This document shows positions 24,696-36,310 of a stretch of DNA of 64,000 nt, piece after piece. Where the stretch lies: assembly GCF_030384885.1 (NCBI RefSeq), contig NZ_CP128613.1. One strand, 5' to 3'. Each line of letters starts with the position of its first letter. Position 1 is the stretch's first letter. The translations under genes and the position numbers were made by a program. The DNA comes from Escherichia coli (GTDB lineage: Bacteria > Pseudomonadota > Gammaproteobacteria > Enterobacterales > Enterobacteriaceae). The notes below the pieces were generated by a model. The model searched no databases, had not been told where the DNA came from, and saw only the letters and a program-made list of their open reading frames with translations.

Positions 24696-25214
24696 AAATT
24701 AACCTTAAGTTGATAAGTTTTGTGGTGAATTTATAAAGCCTGAGGGATAAACATTTATAGTCTATAAGTTACTATTTATTTGAGATAGTAAGCCAATTTT
24801 ATTAGATGAAGAAACGTTCATAACCTCCTCAACTACGTTTCAATCGGCAACATCGGAGAAGTACACTTTGACAATATATAGCATATTGAAGCAGCTGTAA
24901 CTTAGAGCGCGTACACTCAAGATTTCCCGCTGCGGTGATGGCGGACGACTGCGTTTGATAACTCATTTCCCTCACCAACTATCGGACCTGTTCCTGATTG
25001 ATTATCACATTATAATGTGAGCAATGTCCGCTCCTAGCACATAGCAGTTCTAGAGACAATGGCGTAAAGTCATGGAGAATCGGTGGGAGGATATTCAGTT
25101 TCATTCATGCCGAAATACGGTAAAATCTATAACAGATAGAAATCATTCAATATTCGCACTATCAGAAGCTGGCCAGCCAACCGCGCACGATTTTGCATAC
25201 GACATGCTACGGTT

Positions 25215-25814
25215 TCATTTATCTCCGACCGGAAACTTCTTATACAGTGTCGATACACCAACATCATAGATGATCTCCACCTTCTGGCGAGGAACGCCTG
25301 ATGCAATTAATCGCCCGGCCTGCGCCCTTTGTTCTGGTGTAAGTTTGGGACGACGTCCACCAATTCGTCCCTGTGCGCGAGCAACTTCCAGTCCAGCTTT
25401 TGTTCGTTCAACAATCAGTTCTCGTTCCATTTCAGCCAGGGCACCCATCACATGAAAGAAAAAACGCCCCATCGGTGTGCTGGTATCAATAGCATCCGTC
25501 AGGCTGCGAAAATTAACGCCACGTTCGCGCAACTCCTCAACCAGAATGACCAGATGGACAAGCGTGCCGGGACCGGGTTTATTCAGCGCTTCAATCAGGC
25601 GATCGCGCTGGTCAAAGCAGTCATCTCCCACCACATAAGCTGTGATGGACGGGCGGAAAGTGACTTTTCCCAGATCTTCGGTATAGGGCTTGTCGCGGTT
25701 CGGGTATTCATGTGTTTCCACACGGCGACCGGTTCCCGCACTTTCTTCTTCAACCTTAAACGGCACACCTCGAAATGACGCATCCTGAAGCCTGTCTTTC
25801 CACGTCATATACAC
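25215..25814 (-). pseudogene. chimeric ORF: C-terminal half of a Pin/Gin/Hin-family serine DNA invertase fused to a Mu-N-like (DNA circularisation protein) N-terminus
   Basis: C-terminal about 110 aa (VEELRERG..FRSLTD.IDTSTPMGRFFFHVMGALAEMERELIVERT..GGRRPKLT..) matches invertase C-terminus and HTH; catalytic Ser-containing N-terminus missing; first about 85 aa (WKDRLQDASFRGVPF..GRRVETHEYPNRD..EDLG) resembles phage DNA_circ_N proteins. Confidence 0.6.
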
Positions 25815-25869
25815 TCCGAAAATAAAAAAGCCACCTATTAGAAGGTGGCCTTGTAATGAATTTTATTAA

Positions 25870-26400
25870 TTAGCGAGTCAGAAACAACGAATCTTTATAC
25901 TTTTGCTGTTGTTCATTTAAATACTTAGCTGTTTCATCGCTGGCAAATGGAAATATTACCGTATTTTTAGGCATGGTAATTTCTTTTTTGTCCAGCGTCA
26001 GAGTAAACATAGGAACATACTGAGCAGAGTAACGCACCGCAGAAACGAGCTCTAGTTTAGACTCTTCAATAACACTTAAATTATCCAGGCTAACTTTCTC
26101 TTCATCTTTTTTCTTTGACGCATTTAAAGTTTTTATTACTTTATTTAATTTCTCCTGAAAATCCTCCTTAAAGTTTTCAGGATTGCCGTCGACAACAAGA
26201 ATCTGTTCACCCTGATTATCTGGAAAAATAATCTTTGCACTTATCAATTTATTTTCTTTATAAACATCACCAAGTTTTATGGCTCCTCCAGATAACTGAA
26301 TAATATGTTCATCTTTAAAGGAGATGTTGCCAGAGATTATGAGAGATGAAAAAATAGCCGCTGCTCCAAGAATTACACTTGCTGTGATATAGCCTTTCAT
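25870..26400 (-). CDS. hypothetical membrane-anchored/secreted protein, low GC
   Basis: 176-aa ORF with N-terminal hydrophobic segment MKGYITASVILGAAAIFSSLIISG; Lys/Glu-rich; AT-rich. Confidence 0.5.
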   Translation of the reverse strand: MKGYITASVILGAAAIFSSLIISGNISFKDEHIIQLSGGAIKLGDVYKENKLISAKIIFPDNQGEQILVVDGNPENFKEDFQEKLNKVIKTLNASKKKDEEKVSLDNLSVIEESKLELVSAVRYSAQYVPMFTLTLDKKEITMPKNTVIFPFASDETAKYLNEQQQKYKDSLFLTR

Positions 26401-26491
26401 TTTTCGCCTATTAACATTTTTCTAAATGTGCATTAATTCTATCACTCTATTTATGACTTACAACCAGCAATACATGTGAGGGGAATCCTGG

Positions 26492-27623
26492 CTACCAAAA
26501 TCGGGTATAGCCAACATCGTGATTTATATCAATGCCACTGGAGCGTGTTTCCGTAACCCGCATACCTGGTGGCATATTTATAAATGATACCTTGATCTCA
26601 CCATCAACTTTTGGCGCGGTAGCTTTATTAATCATGAAGGGATTCGGGCCTGTGGCATCGGAGGCGTTGTTTGCCTGAGCCGGATCCACCGCCGGATAAG
26701 GAGTGTATCCCCGTGCCGGTATTCCCGTCTTCGATATTGTTGAAGGTGGCGCGATCGGTGTTCTGCACCATGTGCAACGGCACCCGGAACAGACGACAGA
26801 TTTCTTCAAGCTGAAACTTGCGGGTTTCCAGGAACTGGCTGTCCTCGGCGTTCAGCGCCATCGACTTCCAGTCCAGCCCCATCTCAAGGATCATCGGGCG
26901 GTGAGCATTACCAAGCCCGGTGTGACGCTCCTCAAAATCTTTCTTCAGGCGCTCATAAGCCTGATCCGACAGCGTCTGTTCTGTACGCAACACACCCGAC
27001 GTCACCGCGCCATTGCTGAACAGTCTGGCCCCGTGCTCTTCGGTCGCAGCTGCCAGCGATATTGCCTCACGGGCATAGGCGATGGGATTCAGTCCCACCA
27101 GACCGTCCAGCGTCAGCGTGCGCACATGCCAGATATCCTCCTGGCTCAGTACATCCGTGGAGCCATCCGGGAATGTGACCTGATAGACCGGCTCCCAGCT
27201 ACTGTTAAGCTTCGGTACCACACAGCCGGGATCGACGGGCAGCAGTTCAGCCACTTCGCCAAATGCTTTCACTTTGTAGGCGTAAAAGTTTCCCCGCAGG
27301 CACAGACAGGTGACCACCAGCTCCCAGAACTCCTGCGGCGTCATATAGCCATTGGGATGCGTGGAGATCAGCTTATGCAGACGTTCGCCAGTGGCTCTCT
27401 GCTTCAGGCTGCCGTTCAGGTGATACAGGTTGCAGGGCAACATCCCGACCGACTCCGCCAGCACCCTGACACAGGAAAAAACCGCCGTCAGTCGCATGGC
27501 CCGCTGGCTGCTGATCTGCTTTCCGGTATAGGTGTCGTAGGACAACCCGATGGCATCCGCCAGCTCTGCTGGCGTGGTCACCGGTGCGTCACTTTTTCGT
27601 TGAAATAATCCCGAAAAGAACAC
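26492..27623 (-). pseudogene. phage portal protein (HK97-family), frameshifted and 3'-truncated
   Basis: 331-aa ORF with portal-like N-terminus continues in another frame as a 105-aa ORF (26492-26809); normally followed by protease/capsid genes, which are absent. Confidence 0.6.
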
Positions 27624-27805
27624 TATTTACCTCCGCCGACAGACAGCTGTGTACGATCGAGATATCGCGCCACCAGCCACGACCAGAACAGGCACAGCGC
27701 CCCGGCAACAACAAAACCCGCCGGGGGATAAATCAGCCAGGCACCATATGCCAGCAAAAGCGCACCCAGCACGCCCACCAGAGGCGCGAGAATCAGCATG
27801 ATCAT
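27623..27805 (-). CDS. small hydrophobic phage protein
   Basis: 60-aa ORF, two hydrophobic stretches, between terminase and portal. Confidence 0.3.
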
Positions 27806-27816
27806 AATTACCTCAG

Positions 27817-29550
27817 TTAAAGCGAGCGGATCCCGTAGGACTCAATGTGGTCAGACAGCGTGTCTTCTTTCTCGTACAGCATGGCTCTGCCAACCGCCAT
27901 AATCAGCGCAACTGCACCATCGATTTTGTTTTCCGCCTGCTCTTTGACGGGTTTCACCACATCATCGTTACCCGGAATGGTTTTGCCGACCACGTTGCCG
28001 ATACACCAGGTCATGATGGGATTGCCGTCATGATGAAAGCGCCCCGATTCAATTGCCGCTTCCAGCTCTTTCATCGGGTCGGACATGTTGGTGTAGTTCT
28101 GAATGATAGTGATGGGGTTCAGGTCTTCATCAGCAAGGTCATGTGACAACCCGGTCGCCCCGAAGGGGTCGATGGGTGACTCACTGACCGGGCTGATTTT
28201 GTTCGCCGCTTTGGCCTCCTCGAGGATGTAGCGATAATCCACCTCCGCACCATCGGTAACGGTCAGAACGCCCATTTCCACCCATTTCTGAAAGCGTTCG
28301 GCTGTCCGTCGATCTTCATTTTTCTCGACGCTGTACACCGTGTCATACGGTACCCAGAAACGCGGGGCCACACTGTAGTAATGCGTTTTACCGTCAATCT
28401 CGCGGGTATAAAGTCGCGCCATGCTGTTCATATCCAGCTTACGCGCCAGGTCAAAGGCCAGAATGCACGGCTGCCCCTCGAACTGCTCAAGAGTCAGTGA
28501 TTTATCCTCGCATCTCTGCCAGCTCACCAGGTTGAAATACGCCGAACGCGCCGACACCCAGATATTGAGGTGTTTTGTTTTAAAGACGTTTGCCAGACGG
28601 GCGTTATTTTTCGCACGTTGCTGCTGGCTTAACAAAAACTCGCGATAAACCGACACACCGATATTCGGGTTAGCTTTTTCAAGTACCTGCGGGTCGGTCC
28701 AGTCGTCGCCTTCGTCAACGGTATAGATGATCCCGAACAGTTCATCGTTGGGCACCGAGCCGTTGAGCATCTCGATGACTTCCCGCCGTTTGTCGTAGCA
28801 CGGCCCCTCAATGTTGTACCCGGCGGTGGTAATGGCCCACATCAGTGGCTGGCGTCGCGCCCCCATCCCGGTAAGCATCGTGGTGTAAAGCGCATCTGTG
28901 GCGTGCTCGTGATATTCATCCACCACCGCACAGTGGGGTGATGAACCATCACCGGGGTTACCGATCAGCGGTTCAAACCGCGCACCATCCTCCGGACGGT
29001 TCATGTTTGAGGCGTTAACCTCAATCCCGAACGCTTCCGTCAGCATGGGTGTGCGTTTACACATCAGTCGTGCCGGACGAAAGACTTCCCATGCCTGTTT
29101 CTCCGTCGTGGCACCGGAATACACTTCCGCGCCGAACTCGTTATCACAGGCAAAACAATACAGGGCGACACCGGCAGAGATTGCCGATTTGCCGTTCTTA
29201 CGGGGGATTTCGGTATACACCTCACGGAAGCGGCGCAGCCGGGAGCCTTTATTGACCCAGCCAAACGCGCAGCAGATCACAAAGAGCTGCCACGGCTCCA
29301 GCGTGATGGGCATCCTCTTAAATGCCCACTCACCCTTGGTGTGCGGCAACAGCTGAATAAATTTCGCGGCCCGTTCAGCCAGGTCCTTGTCGAAGCGGTA
29401 ACGAAACGACTTACTTTTTTCCTCCATCAGGTCATCAAGATGGCGCTGGCAGGCCTGAATCACAAACTGGCAGGCCACAATCTTTCCGTGCACGACATCA
29501 CGGGCATACTGATTGGCAGCATTTACGTTGGGGTAAGATTTCCGGCTCAT
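27817..29550 (-). CDS. phage terminase large subunit
   Basis: 577-aa ORF with ATPase Walker-like region and C-terminal nuclease region; overlaps small-subunit stop (ATGA). Confidence 0.9.
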
Positions 29551-30050
29551 GATTCGATGATTTTCAGAAACGGGTTAGTGGCTTTCTTCTGCCCCGCCAG
29601 GCCAATCAGACGCTGGCGGCTGCTGGGGTCGAGTCCGAGCATTGCCCCCGTACTGCTCATCTCGGACTCCTGTTCTTTTTTGGCGGTCAGCTCCGGATTT
29701 TTGACCATACCGCCCATTGCACCGGTGATGGTGTTGCCCTGTCTGGCAATATTTTTCACGGCACGTCGCCAGAACTCGTAGGCCACGCACCACCGCTCAA
29801 GCACCGCGAGGTCAGTCACGCACAGCAGGCCCTGACCGCAGAGTTCTTTAGTTGTCAGTTGCCACATGATCGTGGCGAGAGGGAGATCTTCTTCAGCGAA
29901 CCACTCCGGTGGCTCAACACCTTTGATGGGCGTAAAAACAGGTTCATCTTTATTCAGGGCTCGCTTGCCGGGGTTTCCGGCCAGCGCCTTGCGCGCCGTT
30001 GGCTTGGGGCGACGCCCGGAACGCCCCGCCGTTCCAGCCATATGCGGCAC
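29547..30050 (-). CDS. phage terminase small subunit (P27-like)
   Basis: 167-aa ORF, basic N-terminus [22 protein letters not shown], immediately upstream of large subunit. Confidence 0.8.
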
Positions 30051-30166
30051 TCCTGGTTAAATTTCATTTTTCGCGGGTATAAAAAAACGATGGGGCGGGC
30101 AGTCCGGAAGACGTCAGGTCACAGGGATTTGACCCGCCCCTCCCCTCTGGCAGTGGGAACTGGTTC

Positions 30167-30517
30167 TTACTTCAGCCGTTCACGGGCCGTCTTCGCCTTA
30201 TGACACGGCCAGCACAAACTCTGCAGATTACTGTCGACATCAGTGCCGCCATGCGATTTAGGGATGATGTGGTCAACGGTCTTCGCCTCACGCACCACAC
30301 CAGCACGCAGACATAACTGACACAGGCCTTTGTCACGCTTCAGGACACGCGCGCGGATACTGTCCCACTTCGAACCGTAGCCGCGCTGATGACGGGATTG
30401 TCCAGGTTTGTATTGCTTCCAGCCTTCGCTTTTGTGGCTTTCGCAGTAGCCTGAAGGGTCCGTGGTTGTAAAGCGGCAGCCGCGAACACGGCAGGCTTTT
30501 GGGGTTCGTGGGGGCAT
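30167..30517 (-). CDS. HNH endonuclease (phage packaging-associated)
   Basis: 116-aa ORF with CxxC...HIIPKSHGG..D..NLQSLCWPCH HNH motif. Confidence 0.85.
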   Translation of the reverse strand: MPPRTPKACRVRGCRFTTTDPSGYCESHKSEGWKQYKPGQSRHQRGYGSKWDSIRARVLKRDKGLCQLCLRAGVVREAKTVDHIIPKSHGGTDVDSNLQSLCWPCHKAKTARERLK

Positions 30518-31041
30518 ATGTACTCCAATGAAGAAACCAGCGAAATAGCTGCCTTCATTCGTAGTAAACCTTTTTCATCAACGCAGTAATGGATTCTTTG
30601 AAGAGTCGCGATCAATACAACTCACTAATGGAGAGACTTGTCTCACGCATGAGACAAATTTCCCGTTTGATTTAATGGACACTATAGAGGGACAGAATGC
30701 CTTCCTCACTCGAATCACATCAATTAAGGAGGTTCAACATGTTTCATTCCACAAGTCATCAGGCTGTAATTATGGCAGCATCAGTTTGTGCCAAAGACCT
30801 TTTCCGCTTCACTTTGAGCCTGATTCATTTCTACCTGACCGGCTCGCCTCTATCTTTTTAATCCCCGCTTTATCCAAATTGCATTGCCATAATGCCGACA
30901 ACACACTGACATTCAAATCCAGACTACCTCCAATAGTCTGACCGTACACCTATATAGTTTTAATTTTCATCAATCCATTTAACTATCGTTTAATTGTTGT
31001 CACATAGGATTCTGCCGTTTTTAACAATGCAGGATAATAAG

Positions 31042-31335
31042 ATGAAAAAAATGTTGTTTTCTGCCGCTCTGGCAATGCTTATTACAGGATGTGCTCAACA
31101 GACGTTTACTGTTGGAAACAAACCGACAGCAGTAACACCAAAAGAAACCATCACCCATCATTTCTTCGTTTCGGGAATTGGACAGGAGAAAACTGTTGAT
31201 GCAGCCAAAATTTGTGGCGGCGCAGAAAATGTTGTTAAAACAGAAACCCAGCAAACATTCGTAAATGGATTGCTCGGTTTTATTACTTTAGGCATTTATA
31301 CTCCGCTGGAAGCGCGTGTGTATTGCTCACAATAA
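31042..31335 (+). CDS. bor: Bor/Iss-family outer-membrane lipoprotein
   Basis: 97 aa from internal Met; lipobox LITGC; closely matches recollection of lambda Bor. Confidence 0.9.
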   Translation: MKKMLFSAALAMLITGCAQQTFTVGNKPTAVTPKETITHHFFVSGIGQEKTVDAAKICGGAENVVKTETQQTFVNGLLGFITLGIYTPLEARVYCSQ

Positions 31336-31366
31336 TTGCATGAGTTGCCCATCGATATGGGCAGCT

Positions 31367-31828
31367 CTATCTGCACTGCTCATTAATATACTTCTGGGTT
31401 CCTTCCAGTTGTTTTTGCATCGTGATCAGCCTCTCTCTGAGGGTGAAATAATCCCGTTCAGCGGTGTCTGCCAGTCGGGGGGAGGCTGCATTATCCACGC
31501 CGGAGGCGGTGGTGGCTTCACGCACTGACTGACAGACTGCTTTGATGTGCAACCGACGACGACCAGCGGCAACATCATCACGCAGAGCATCATTTTCAGC
31601 TTTCGCATCAGCTAACTCCTTCGTGTATTTTGCATCGAGCGCAGCAACATCACGCTGACGCATCTGCATGTCAGTAATTGCCACGTTCGCCAGCTTCAGT
31701 TCTCTGGCATTTTTGTCGCGCTGGGCTTTGTATGTAATGGCGTTATCACGGTAATGATTAACCGCCCATGACAGACAGACGATGATGCAGATAACCAGAG
31801 CGGAGATAATCGCGGTTAATCTGTTCAT
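31367..31828 (-). CDS. Rz: i-spanin Rz
   Basis: 153-aa ORF, N-terminal TM, coiled-coil; closely matches recollection of lambda Rz. Confidence 0.9.
31426..31608 (-). CDS. Rz1: o-spanin Rz1 (embedded in +1 frame of Rz)
   Basis: 60-aa ORF with lipobox VVGC and proline-rich PPPPP segment, fully inside Rz. Confidence 0.8.
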
Positions 31829-32301
31829 ACCTCAATCTCTCTGACCGTTCCGCCCGCTTCTTTGAATTTTGCAATCAGGCTGTCAGCCTTATGCTCGAAC
31901 TGACCATAACCAGCGCCCGGCAGTGAAGCCCAGATATTGCTGCAACGGTCGATAGCCTGACGAATATCACCGCGATCAATCATCGGTAAAGCGCCACGCT
32001 CTTTAATCTGCTGCAATGCCACTGCGTCCTGGCTTTTGGGGGAGAAGTCTTTCAGGCCAAGCTGCTTACGATAGGAATCCCACCAACGGGAAAGAAGCTG
32101 GTAGCGCCCGGCTGCTGTTGATTTGAGTTTTGGGTTTAGCGTGACAAGTTTGCGAGGGTGATCGGAGTAATCAGTAAATAGCTCTCCGCCTACAATGACG
32201 TCATAACCATGATTTCTGGTTTTCTGCCGTCCGTTATCCGTTCCTTCTGACCATGCCACCATATCGAGGAAAGCTTTACGCTGAGGATTAAGATTTTGCA
32301 T
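31825..32301 (-). CDS. R: endolysin, lambda R-type lytic transglycosylase
   Basis: 158-aa ORF closely matching recollection of lambda R (..[31 protein letters not shown]..). Confidence 0.9.
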
Positions 32302-32605
32302 TTTTCACCCCTGTCAGTCGTTCCCAGAAGTACGTCAGTGCAACCGAACCCATCGCACCACTAATCCCCGCTGTCGCGAGAATCATGTAAATACTGAATC
32401 CACTTTCGATGCTGATCAGGCCACCAATAACACCGGTGAATCCTGATACCACTATCTGAGCCAGAGCATTTATCCAACTCCACGTTGCTTTACTCTGCTT
32501 CACATCTATCAGGTAGCGGACTAGACCGCCCCAACCTGCGATGATCAGCAAAACGAGCCAGAACGCTCCGGCAAGGCTCTCTTTTTCGTGCATATGAATA
32601 GCCAA
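32288..32605 (-). CDS. putative holin
   Basis: 105-aa ORF with hydrophobic helices, overlapping start of endolysin; not lambda S-like. Confidence 0.55.
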   Translation of the reverse strand: MAIHMHEKESLAGAFWLVLLIIAGWGGLVRYLIDVKQSKATWSWINALAQIVVSGFTGVIGGLISIESGFSIYMILATAGISGAMGSVALTYFWERLTGVKNAKS

Positions 32606-32711
32606 TGTTTCGCCGCCGACAAAAGGCCGGGACGTTAAATGTCAGAAATCAGGCTCACGGGGTAATTTAACGACAAAGCACGGAGTTGATGCTCCCCGCA
32701 AGCCTGGAATA

Positions 32712-32734
32712 AAAAAGCCAGCATGTAGCTGGCA
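32712..32734 (-). terminator. intrinsic terminator of short late-promoter transcript (tR'-like)
   Basis: On minus strand GCCAGCTACATGCTGGC hairpin followed by TTTTTT, between Q and the holin. Confidence 0.5.
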
Positions 32735-32914
32735 ACAGAGGGTTAAGCAATATCAACTCAACAGCTGAAGACACCCTGGCTGGGGTACATTGGAAGGATA
32801 CTCACCGCCCAGAAACAGAAAAGCCCAAGGCTTTAAACCTCGAGCTTGAATTTGGATTACTGCCAGTGCGTACAACATTGGCAAAATATCAGATTTATAT
32901 GAAATATATGCTTT

Positions 32915-33604
32915 TTAATCCAGTTTTGCAATATTTTGCTGTGAAAATGTCGCCTTTTGTTTTGAACGTGTTCTCGTTAGAAGCAATAAAGCTTCGCTAT
33001 CAAGCTGTAGAAAAATGTGCTTCATTGCAACCCAGCGTTCAGTGAATGTCTCAGACCAGTTTTTTGATGTCACTCCCACCAGTGACGCCAGTTCCTGGTA
33101 TTCATAAGCCTCACGCCCTGCCAGTTCGCTCTTCACATCCTGTGCCGCCAGCCAGATCAACTTCTTCAGGCGTTCCAGTGTCTTACCTGCAATTTTTCTG
33201 GTACCCAACAGAGTCTTAAACTCGCTCCATGCCCACTGCGTTATGGCAACCTGATGCTCCCAGCGAATATTTTCACTGTAACTCCACAGCAACCATGCTT
33301 TCTGATGCTCATCGAGAGACAGAACAGCGCGGCGCCATGAAGAGGTTGAAAACTCGACCGGACTGATCAGGGCGACAGATGAACCTTTTGCGTACGACTG
33401 TTTACCGGAAATCGGCAGATTATCCAGCATAATAATCTTGCCAGTTACCTCATCCAGAATGCGTCGCTTCTTTCGTTTGTATGTACCAGTATCAAATTGT
33501 GCATGCTCCAGCCAGGCTTCAAGCTGGCCTTTCGTTGCTCCGCTCAAGTCAGCGGTAGCCACCATGAGTTGCTCGCGGACATATTGTAAATATTGGGTAT
33601 TCAT
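32915..33604 (-). CDS. late-gene antiterminator Q-like protein
   Basis: 229-aa ORF directly upstream of the lysis cassette and downstream of rusA; position-based, not lambda-Q-like in sequence. Confidence 0.55.
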   Translation of the reverse strand: MNTQYLQYVREQLMVATADLSGATKGQLEAWLEHAQFDTGTYKRKKRRILDEVTGKIIMLDNLPISGKQSYAKGSSVALISPVEFSTSSWRRAVLSLDEHQKAWLLWSYSENIRWEHQVAITQWAWSEFKTLLGTRKIAGKTLERLKKLIWLAAQDVKSELAGREAYEYQELASLVGVTSKNWSETFTERWVAMKHIFLQLDSEALLLLTRTRSKQKATFSQQNIAKLD

Positions 33605-33737
33605 GCGGCAGCTCCTTTCAGTGTTTTGGCGTAATTCCTCAGTATTCGGTAATCGGTCAAAACAGAACCGGGGAAACGATATAAGCGCAGATGCCCCCAG
33701 CGGTGGCGAAGAAGTTCTGCCATATAAAACTCAAACA

Positions 33738-34100
33738 TCATTCATTCCCCATTTCGGTGATGGTCAGTTCCAGCCTCCCACCTTTGGTAACAGGCATCTT
33801 CACAACACGGTAATCAACGACCTGAGCATCATCCAGCCAGAAACCTGCTTTAGTGAGTGCGTCAAAAGCGGCTTTTTGCAGATTATCCAGGTCACGGCGA
33901 CGGCGATCCGGCATGTGGCACTCAATGCGGATTTTCACAGGCATAGCCAGGCCGATATCCAGCATTGCGTTTTTAATGATTCGGGCGACGTTATCGCGGT
34001 ATGCCTGCCCCTCTGCGCTGACGTGCGTGCGCCCGCGATTATGGCGGTAATAGCGATTATTGCTCGGAGGCCAGGGTAATGTGATGCTGTAGGTATTCAC
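33738..34100 (-). CDS. rusA: Holliday junction resolvase RusA
   Basis: 120-aa ORF matching recollection of RusA (..[31 protein letters not shown]..). Confidence 0.85.
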
Positions 34101-34387
34101 GCCTTAATAACCCCCTCTTTCAGCCAGATAACCTGTGTTCTCGCCATACCTTCCAGCGCGCATTCTTTTGCATATGCAGCATCGACAAAATGTGTGCGGC
34201 GGTCGATTTCGTCGTGGCAGGCAGAACATGCAATGGTGGCAATCAGGTCTGGCGGTTTGGTACCGGTGCCGCACAATCCAGTCAGCCGGATATGTGCCAG
34301 TACAGACGTTTCAGGGTTGCCATTACATACGCCAGGGATTCTTACCTGGCATTCCCGACTACGCGCTGCTTTTCTCAAATCAGCCAT
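34097..34387 (-). CDS. phage protein, Cys-rich (DUF1364/YbcO-like)
   Basis: 96 aa from [10 protein letters not shown]; four Cys; nin-region position. Confidence 0.5.
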
Positions 34388-34550
34388 GATTCCTCCTTGC
34401 TGCCAGTCGCAACCATTTTTTATCAACCAGGCTGGCGGTATATCCGAGCAGTGTTGGTATTTCGGAAGGCTTCAGCTCCGGTTTACGCTTACGACGATTT
34501 GGTACTCTGTAGATGTGTCCGTTCATGACACGAATAAGCGGTGTAGCCAT
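34380..34550 (-). CDS. NinE-like small protein (56 aa)
   Basis: [56 protein letters not shown]; stop overlaps next start; not in ORF track. Confidence 0.45.
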   Translation of the reverse strand: MATPLIRVMNGHIYRVPNRRKRKPELKPSEIPTLLGYTASLVDKKWLRLAARRNHG

Positions 34551-34831
34551 TACGCCTCCTGTTTGTCGCGGAGCTGCTGGAACTCGCAGCTCTGCGGAAT
34601 AGTCAGGTGGCAGCCAATATTCATCGCCCAGGCTTCAACCTTACACAGGAAGACATACATCTCTCCGGTATCAAGATCGGAGGTATGGCGTAACGACTGG
34701 ATAGTGGTGATATCACCGGTTACGACATCAACCAGGTCTTTGGTTTCATAACCGAGATATGTGTGTTTGAGAGCATCTTTTACCCAAGCTGGAGTGGCGA
34801 ACGTTTTACAGGCAACACGCAAAGACCCCAC
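34550..34831 (-). CDS. phage nin-region protein, possibly 5'-truncated
   Basis: 93-aa ORF abutting the integrase upstream region. Confidence 0.35.
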   Translation of the reverse strand: MGSLRVACKTFATPAWVKDALKHTYLGYETKDLVDVVTGDITTIQSLRHTSDLDTGEMYVFLCKVEAWAMNIGCHLTIPQSCEFQQLRDKQEA

Positions 34832-34942
34832 TAAACCAAAATCTCCTTACCTCACAACGCGACAAGCCTGCATTGCGGCGCTTCAGTCTCCGCTGCATAC
34901 TATCAAGGTGAGCGCGGGTGATGGCATAACAGAGGAAAGAAA

Positions 34943-36106
34943 ATGTCACTCTTCCGCAGAAGTGAAATATGGTACGCCAGTTTCACATTGCCGAACGGTA
35001 AAAGATTTAAACAGTCTCTTGGAACAAAGGACAAAAGGCAGGCGACAGAGCTCCATGACAAGCTAAAGGCTGAAGCATGGCGGGTCAGCAAACTTGGTGA
35101 AATACCTGATATGACGTTTGAGGAAGCGTGTGTCAGGTGGCTCGAAGAGAAAGCACATAAGAAATCACTGGACGATGACAAAAGCCGGATCGGATTCTGG
35201 CTTCAACATTTCGCAGGGATGCAACTAAGAGACATCACTGAATCAAAAATTTATTCAGCGATGCAGAAAATGACAAACCGGCGTCATGAGGAAAACTGGA
35301 AACTCAGGGCAGAAGCATGCAGAAAAAAAGGGAAACCTGTTCCAGAATACACGCCAAAACCAGCGTCCGTTGCAACGAAGGCTACGCATCTTTCATTTAT
35401 AAAGGCCCTGCTAAGAGCCGCAGAGCGTGAATGGAAAATGCTGGATAAGGCACCAATTATTAAAGTGCCTCAACCGAAGAATAAACGTATCCGCTGGCTG
35501 GAGCCTCATGAAGCACAAAGGCTGATTGATGAATGTCCGGAGCCATTAAAGTCTGTTGTTGAATTTGCACTGGCAACAGGCTTAAGACGCTCGAACATCA
35601 TCAACCTTGAATGGCAACAAATAGACATGCAGCGCCGGGTGGCATGGATAAACCCGGAAGAGAGTAAATCAAACCGCGCAATTGGCGTTGCGCTGAATGA
35701 TACTGCATGTCGCGTATTGAAAAAACAAATCGGGAATCATCACCGTTGGGTATTTGTATACAAGGAAAGCTGTACCAAACCAGACGGAACGAAAGCGCCA
35801 ACGGTCAGGAAGATGCGGTATGACGCAAACACAGCCTGGAAAGCGGCGCTGAGACGAGCAGGTATTGATGATTTCAGATTTCACGACTTGAGACACACCT
35901 GGGCAAGTTGGCTGGTTCAAGCCGGAGTCCCGTTGTCAGTGTTACAGGAAATGGGAGGCTGGGAGTCTATCGAAATGGTTCGTCGATATGCTCACCTCGC
36001 ACCTAATCACCTTACCGAACATGCACGGCAAATAGACTCGATCCTGAACCCATCGGTCCCAAATTTGTCCCAGTCAAAAAATAAGGAAGGTACTAATGAT
36101 GTGTAA
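34943..36106 (+). CDS. int: tyrosine integrase (P4/DLP12 IntD-like)
   Basis: 387-aa ORF with HDLRHT...YAHL catalytic tail, ending 15 bp before the tRNA 3' end. Confidence 0.9.
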
Positions 36107-36166
36107 CTTATTGATTTAAATGGTGCCGATAATAGGAGTCGAACCTACGACCTTCGCATTACGAAT
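36105..36166. repeat. right 62-bp direct repeat (att copy overlapping tRNA-Thr 3' end)
   Basis: Identical to 22852-22913. Confidence 0.8.
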
Positions 36167-36196
36167 GCGCTGCTCTACCAACTGAGCTATATCGGC
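36121..36196 (-). tRNA. thrW: tRNA-Thr (anticodon CGU)
   Basis: Reverse complement reads GCCGATATAGCTCAGTTGGTAGAGCAGCGCATTCGTAATGCGAAGGTCGTAGGTTCGACTCCTATTATCGGCACCA; cloverleaf-compatible, CCA end. Confidence 0.9.
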
Positions 36197-36310
36197 CCTG
36201 AAAGGACATGTTCACGAGCGTGAATCACGGTGGACAAGGTTAAAACTAACCGGGCGATGCGTCAATGGCCTTGTGAATCAAATGGCTACTTTTGCATCAC
36301 CCGGTTTTAT

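Follow-up and report, generated by a model that had tools for sequence, protein, structure and literature searches.

The gap between an HNH endonuclease gene and the small terminase gene terS in the analyzed window, a 64,000-nucleotide stretch of Escherichia coli DNA, is probably the cos site of a temperate phage of the SfV/SfI type. Such a phage would package its DNA in the HK97 style, with HNH, TerS, and TerL acting together. From sequence comparison, we place the probability of this reading at about 0.85. The cos of the SfV/SfI phage family is already known, and the window site mainly confirms its annotation. The gap also holds a perfect inverted repeat, and this repeat matters because it is homologous to a cos end measured by experiment, and not on statistical grounds.

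Gene Order and Layout of the Gap

The genes around the gap are read on the minus strand. Immediately upstream of cos lies the packaging-associated HNH endonuclease gene (30167..30517, 116 aa; Pfam HNH PF01844, E 7.8e-17). Its product is 45% identical to HK97 gp74 over 42 aa (E 2e-10), and its counterparts in SfI and in E. coli RefSeq are annotated as HNH endonuclease. On the other side of the gap are terS (29547..30041), encoding a small terminase subunit of the P27 family with 164 aa, terL (27817..29550), encoding a large terminase subunit of 577 aa with Pfam TerL_ATPase and TerL_nuclease domains, and a portal ORF (27623..26628) that covers positions 2–251 of the 321 in the Pfam profile. The HNH, terS, and terL reading frames are intact. 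The Pfam order of HNH, Terminase_4 (TerS), TerL_ATPase/TerL_nuclease, and portal is HK97-like, and HNH adjoins terS and terL with cos between them, as in phages of the HK97 type. The ATG at 30041 is the terS start annotated in SfV and SfI. The original prediction gave the HNH-terS gap as 116 bp, which is right for the alternative GTG start at 30050 and becomes 125 bp with the ATG. Vibrio phage VaK, with a TerL 68% identical to that of the window, has just 6 nt from HNH stop to terS start; this interval leaves no room for a cos, and the VaK cos must therefore be elsewhere.

Read in phage orientation, the gap begins with the G-rich box GGGGAGGGGCGGG (30133..30145, −54..−42 from the cut) and a TCAAATC box (30126..30132, −41..−35) that starts 41 nt before the top-strand cut. 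A variable spacer of 21 nt (30105..30125) is followed by GAC and the cohesive end TGCCCGCCCC (together 30092..30104), with the end itself at −10..−1. Past the cut are a T7 tract (30081..30087, +5..+11) and a 21-bp candidate TerS-binding site, CCCGCGAAAAATGAAATTTAA (30057..30077, +15..+35). The T-rich tract is kept in the SfV-type and Klebsiella relatives and possibly plays a role in DNA bending or flexibility.

Cohesive End and Close Relatives

Megablast against phage records matched the region across HNH, gap, and terS at 95–100% identity to Shigella phages SfV, SfI, SfII, and SfIV, as well as to Salmonella phage 118970_sal3 and several E. coli phages. ST64B and Klebsiella phages matched at lower identity. 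Several linear phage records start or finish within the HNH-terS gap. The SfI/SfV group shares with the window the sequence from G-box to terS, the HNH gene, a P27-family TerS, and TerL, with a few base differences in the variable spacer and the HNH-proximal flank.

Run-off sequencing from both ends of SfI virion DNA showed that 10 nt, 5′-TGCCCGCCCC-3′, were missing relative to the prophage, and the authors of that work read the missing bases as the cohesive end (PMC3636060). The exact 10-mer occurs at 30101..30092 on the minus strand, with 75 nt between it and the preceding HNH stop and 50 nt between it and the terS ATG that follows. The suggestion in the original prediction that the gap is a candidate cos site is borne out by this unchanged end, which contains one arm of the repeat, and by the 95–100% identity to the cos region of SfV, SfI, SfII, and SfIV. 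The 10-mer between HNH and terS and the orthologous flanking packaging genes are both present, placing the site in the SfV/SfI group.

HK97 ends are 10-nt 3′ overhangs (PMC9410871, PMC11331095). Because both SfI run-off reads stop before the 10-mer and HK97 has 3′ overhangs, we infer the same polarity here. The nicks would fall at 30092|30091 on the top strand and at 30102|30101 on the bottom strand, the ends of the window element being deduced in this way from those of its relatives. On overhang lengths, the Discussion of PMC9410871 gives 10-nt 5′ overhangs for lambda and 12-nt 3′ overhangs for HK97, whereas its own Figure 1 legend, like PMC11331095, assigns HK97 10-nt 3′ overhangs; the lengths in that Discussion appear to be swapped.

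Published records of these phages open at different points. The SfV record (U82619.2) opens at ...GACGTCT|TCCGGACTG, corresponding to window 30109|30108, and SfIV opens at the same point, judged by matching BLAST coordinates. The SfI (JX509734.1) measurement and the HK97 alignment put the top-strand cut 17 nt downstream of this opening. The published linearizations of the SfV/SfI family are therefore inconsistent. In ON470584.1, a partial genome of phage vB_EcoM-689R6, a run of 24 N occurs about 30 nt past the cos cut, some 15–40 nt before the terS ATG; it looks like an assembly gap near the physical genome end.

The Inverted Repeat

The repeat is a perfect 8-nt match, with GGGGCGGG at 30092–30099 and CCCGCCCC at 30133–30140 on the plus strand. 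An inverted repeat at 30082–30130 with a spacer of about 33 bp had been predicted. The repeat exists and its spacer is indeed 33 nt, but the predicted interval is displaced to the left by about 10 bases, and the second arm falls outside it. In phage orientation, the downstream arm makes up 8 of the 10 cohesive-end bases, and the upstream arm is the 3′ part (last 8 nt) of the G-rich box. Statistically, the repeat is unremarkable. Across the 64-kb window, 151 perfect 8-nt inverted-repeat pairs with spacers of 3–50 nt were counted, and about 9% of its 116-bp windows hold one. A shuffle test gave 0/100 for the repeat, a result that concerns exactly that sequence and nothing wider.

Two sets of data were used to follow the arms among relatives. 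The HNH-terS gaps of 13 phages were aligned, and 79 viral contigs with a TerS 99–100% identical to that of the window were tabulated, yielding 47 distinct intergenic variants. The TerS protein scan behind this table returned 99–100% identical relatives only (the best 80 related viral contigs all fall in this range), and it therefore reports fine-scale variation, not depth. Depth beyond close relatives came from annotated phage records and from a DNA-pattern scan. Of the 47 variants, 44 keep the cohesive-end arm intact and three read CGCCCGCCCC. The G-box arm drifts (GGGGGAGG, GGGCAGG, GGGGCGTG) opposite a constant CCCGCCCC while TerS stays identical, and no compensating change accompanies it. 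Phage sal3 carries CCCGCCTC opposite an unaltered GGGGCGGG. The longest perfect complementarity between G-region and end is 8 nt in the window, 7 in phi644-2, 6 in D3, 5 in the Klebsiella phage, and 3 in both HK97 and phiKO2. No covariation of the arms was found among the 47 close variants or across six lineages.

These data bear on whether the symmetry itself works in cos recognition or cleavage, as a cruciform, a hairpin, or a symmetric binding site for a dimeric packaging protein. We consider such a role improbable. It would gain from the perfect 8/8 G+C-rich match, the sole all-G/C 8-mer inverted-repeat pair within the 64 kb, from arm starts 41 bp apart, about four helical turns, which would set both arms on the same helix face, and from the 6–7 nt of complementarity retained in D3 and phi644-2; given the latter, symmetry may play a weak role. 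Against it, the upstream variants and sal3 change one side only, HK97 and phiKO2 are down to 3 nt, and the repeat is centered at about −25, some 20 bp upstream of the center of the staggered cut at −5/−6, unlike the two-fold symmetry of lambda cosN. Because the arms drift uncompensated, complementarity falls to 3 nt, and the center lies off the cut, the symmetry is judged incidental. As the variant sequences suggest, the complementarity most likely follows from having a G-rich box opposite a C-rich end, and not from selection for a hairpin, a cruciform, or a symmetric protein site. The conserved features are the G-rich box and TCAAATC upstream and the C-rich cohesive end downstream; the repeat is not conserved in HK97-type cos. 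The comparison with related phages proposed in the original prediction thus has a split outcome, in which the G-rich box and the C-rich end are kept but their complementarity is not.

The same arms could also be read as RNA. In phage sense, the stem GGGGCGGG/CCCGCCCC followed by AUCGUUUUUUU would form an intrinsic terminator or a regulatory RNA between HNH and terS, a reading to which we give very little credence. A seven-U run does start 4 nt past the stem, and a 76-nt RNA folds at −29.5 kcal/mol with the arms paired. However, this fold barely beats shuffled sequences (z = −1.79, with 8 of 200 shuffles equally good). An intrinsic terminator has a short G+C-rich hairpin with a 3–8 nt loop and a direct U-run, whereas the interior here is 33 nt, much larger than a terminator loop. 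A terminator and promoter scan of 29500–31000 found nothing, and a search of 29900–30300 against Rfam on both strands gave no match at E ≤ 1. The HK97 end sequence has no adjoining T-run, and the lack of arm covariation among the 47 variants speaks against a conserved stem. Lambdoid late transcripts are Q-antiterminated and must run from the lysis genes across cos into terS. With a marginal fold, no terminator or promoter hit, and no Rfam match, the terminator and RNA reading was rejected.

The Upstream Box across Lineages

With the gap read as cos, the part upstream of the cut can be compared directly with HK97. The HK97 right end, ...GGGGGGGGGATCAAATC-N21-GAC-CGCCGCCAAA|, aligns gap-free with the window sequence ...GGGGAGGGGCGGGTCAAATC-N21-GAC-TGCCCGCCCC|, and in each the distance from the start of TCAAATC to the cut is exactly 41 nt. 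A G-run stands directly before the TCAAATC box in the cos regions of SfV-type phages, Klebsiella phages, HK97, phiKO2, D3, and phi644-2. In phiKO2, D3, phi644-2, and the Klebsiella phages, G-run and box are followed by GAC and a C-rich 9–10-mer. TCAAATC, TCAAAAC, or TGAAAAA lies 40–42 nt from the cut in 9 lineages. Within the SfV family, the TCAAATC box is unaltered in all but 4 of the 47 intergenic variants. The 21-nt spacer is wholly divergent between lineages and variable inside the SfV family, yet its length never changes. This architecture is kept though TerL has diverged widely, the window protein showing tblastn identities of 69% to phi644-2, 55% to phiKO2, 47% to D3, and 26% to the HK97-like phage HK633.

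Viral contigs were also scanned with the DNA pattern GGGG-N0-1-TCAAATC-N21-22-GACCGCC, which returned at least 120 loci. Among these listed loci, 114 carry sufficient upstream sequence, and at 111 of them an HNH gene lies at most 700 nt upstream. Among the matches listed, TerL lies downstream at every locus of the four assigned downstream types that has enough flank, and a recognizable TerS is present at nearly all loci of these types. The scanned loci carry GGGG, TCAAATC, and GACCGCC by construction and are not independent support for the box. Independent support comes from the window/SfV group, HK97, phiKO2, D3, phi644-2, and the Klebsiella phages identified by terS homology.

The scan also showed how the two halves of cos combine. 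One upstream half, consisting of G-run, TCAAATC, spacer, and GACCGCCGCC, recurs with at least four unrelated downstream halves, the junction falling exactly at the cut (loci L106–L225). The downstream halves are of an HK97 type, an SfV/P27 type, a phiKO2-like type, and a "GCAGGTTAG" type, and each type brings its own TerS. At one scanned locus (L143), an HK97-type upstream half adjoins a "GCAGGTTAG"-type downstream half. The final 3 overhang nt track the downstream type. Since the same upstream half sits on unrelated downstream halves, the cos cut is a module boundary. Across the sequences compared, the upstream half is generic to the supergroup and the downstream half TerS-specific.

Judged by its position, the G-box/TCAAATC element may resemble lambda cosQ in function and be the signal that the incoming motor meets first, serving for termination or for positioning of the nuclease. 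A broader proposal, which we offer tentatively and would not bet on, is that it forms a third cos sub-site of the whole HNH-associated HK97 supergroup (phages of E. coli, Shigella, Salmonella, Klebsiella, Pseudomonas, and Burkholderia), read by the TerL/HNH core or by the terminating motor in a cosQ-like manner, while exchangeable TerS-side modules recombining at the cut would give specificity. An IHF-site reading of the TCAAATC box was rejected; in no lineage did it match the consensus within one mismatch. The upstream box is the only aspect of the site that is possibly new, and it might have been described earlier. No description of an upstream cos element in HK97-type phages was found in the literature searched, the original HK97, SfV, phiKO2, and D3 genome papers and Kala 2014 lying outside its scope, and a text search for TCAAATC returned irrelevant papers only.

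The Downstream Half and a Candidate TerS Site

The 21-bp non-coding sequence CCCGCGAAAAATGAAATTTAA is identical, both in sequence and in cut offset (+15..+35), in Burkholderia phage phi644-2. In a global alignment of the two phages, the block at 30077..30058 (+15..+34) is identical at 20/20 positions, while other 20-nt blocks of HNH, gap, and terS score 7–17/20 and the regional identities are 58–67%. The TerS proteins of the window and phi644-2 are 53% identical. In HK97, the minimal TerS site spans +15..+29; a 9-bp A-tract adjoins its C:G core, in which the G at position 21 is critical (PMC11331095). Position 1 of the HK97 GenBank record agrees with the numbering of that paper (T16, C21, T24–30). 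Like the HK97 site, CCCGCGAAAAATGAAATTTAA places a C:G core beside an A-tract, with its CCCG core 4 bp nearer the cut than in HK97. Because it overlaps the HK97 +15..+29 interval and is identical in phi644-2 despite 53% TerS identity, we regard CCCGCGAAAAATGAAATTTAA as a candidate small-terminase (TerS) binding site. BLASTP, Pfam, and PDB phmmer returned no homology of the window TerS to HK97 gp1; a signal appeared in fold comparison only.

Following the HK97 analogy, TerS would lock onto the +15..+35 site and set the TerL nuclease, aided by HNH, over the staggered cuts, which would leave 10-nt 3′ overhangs. Packaging would then proceed in the direction from terS to terL. The window site resembles HK97 cos, with its 10-nt 3′ overhang, HNH gp74-assisted cleavage, and TerS site at +15..+29, in gene order, in the distance of the G-box/TCAAATC from the cut, in where the candidate TerS site lies, in the presumed length of the ends, and possibly in the fold of TerS. 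The two differ in that the TerS proteins belong to sequence families without similarity to each other, TerL identity is low (26%, HK633, tblastn), the end is CGCCGCCAAA in HK97 and TGCCCGCCCC in the window, and the downstream halves are unrelated in sequence. The distance from HNH stop to cut is 319 nt in HK97 and 75 nt in the window, and HK97 cos has no inverted repeat.

In lambda, the overhangs are 12 nt long and 5′, its cosN is partly two-fold symmetric, and it is not known to have an HNH partner. In contrast, the window ends would be 10-nt, presumably 3′, and the repeat lies off-center from the cut. A lambda-type cos combines two-fold symmetry centered on the cut with an IHF site, and the window cos shows neither: the IHF consensus WATCARNNNNTTR has no match within one mismatch in the window cos region, while lambda cos uses an IHF site (PMC4856287). 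The likeness to lambda cosQ-cosN-cosB is in tripartite logic only, namely an upstream element met first by the motor, a nicking site, and a downstream TerS-binding region beside the terminase genes (PMC4856287).

The Prophage Remnant

The cos site lies in a prophage (25200–36200) that is a remnant of about 10 kb, whereas the SfI/SfV group consists of complete phages. It sits at tRNA-Thr(CGT) (36121–36196) beside an aldehyde-dehydrogenase-family (proA-like) gene, which is the SfV/SfI integration site, known in that group as tRNA-Thr (thrW) beside proA. The remnant reads, in order, integrase (34943–36106), nin/RusA, Q (32915–33604), lysis genes, HNH, cos, terS, terL, and truncated portal, with the integrase directly adjoining the nin/Q region. 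Past the portal are a DNA_circ_N/invertase fusion ORF, an ORF without a Pfam match, and DUF6602 and DUF1440 proteins. No head, tail, replication, or immunity genes were identified in the remnant. With no head or tail genes, the window cos therefore cannot support autonomous packaging.

This qualifies the cos assignment. We see an even chance that the site, though cos by descent, is a dead relic here that would function only with the help of a related phage. The integrase abutting nin/Q, the truncated portal, and the absence of identified head and tail genes point that way. On the other side, the HNH, terS, and terL frames are intact, the cos has the same sequence as the variant seen most often in the tabulated relatives, and helpers are common, the phage type occurring in 1,524 of 5,426 complete E. 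coli genomes at up to 4 copies per genome. Only a helper phage of the same kind residing in the same cell could use the window cos, and such helper action is conceivable. An intact cos with its terminase genes in a remnant could be cut by a helper, which bears on mobilization of adjacent chromosomal DNA. Of modest wider interest are the fixed-distance G-box/TCAAATC, the exchange of cos halves at the cut, and the 21-bp candidate TerS site; the box, the modularity at the cut, and the candidate site are concrete targets for the HK97 in vitro packaging system.

Two further ORFs of the remnant deserve mention. One at 30994–31335 on the plus strand possibly encodes a bor-like lipoprotein. The fusion ORF past the portal (25215–25814, minus strand, 199 aa) joins a Mu-type DNA circularization N-terminus (PF07157) to a resolvase/invertase catalytic C-part and its HTH, and it has the appearance of a junction left by a deletion or an inversion where the remnant ends.
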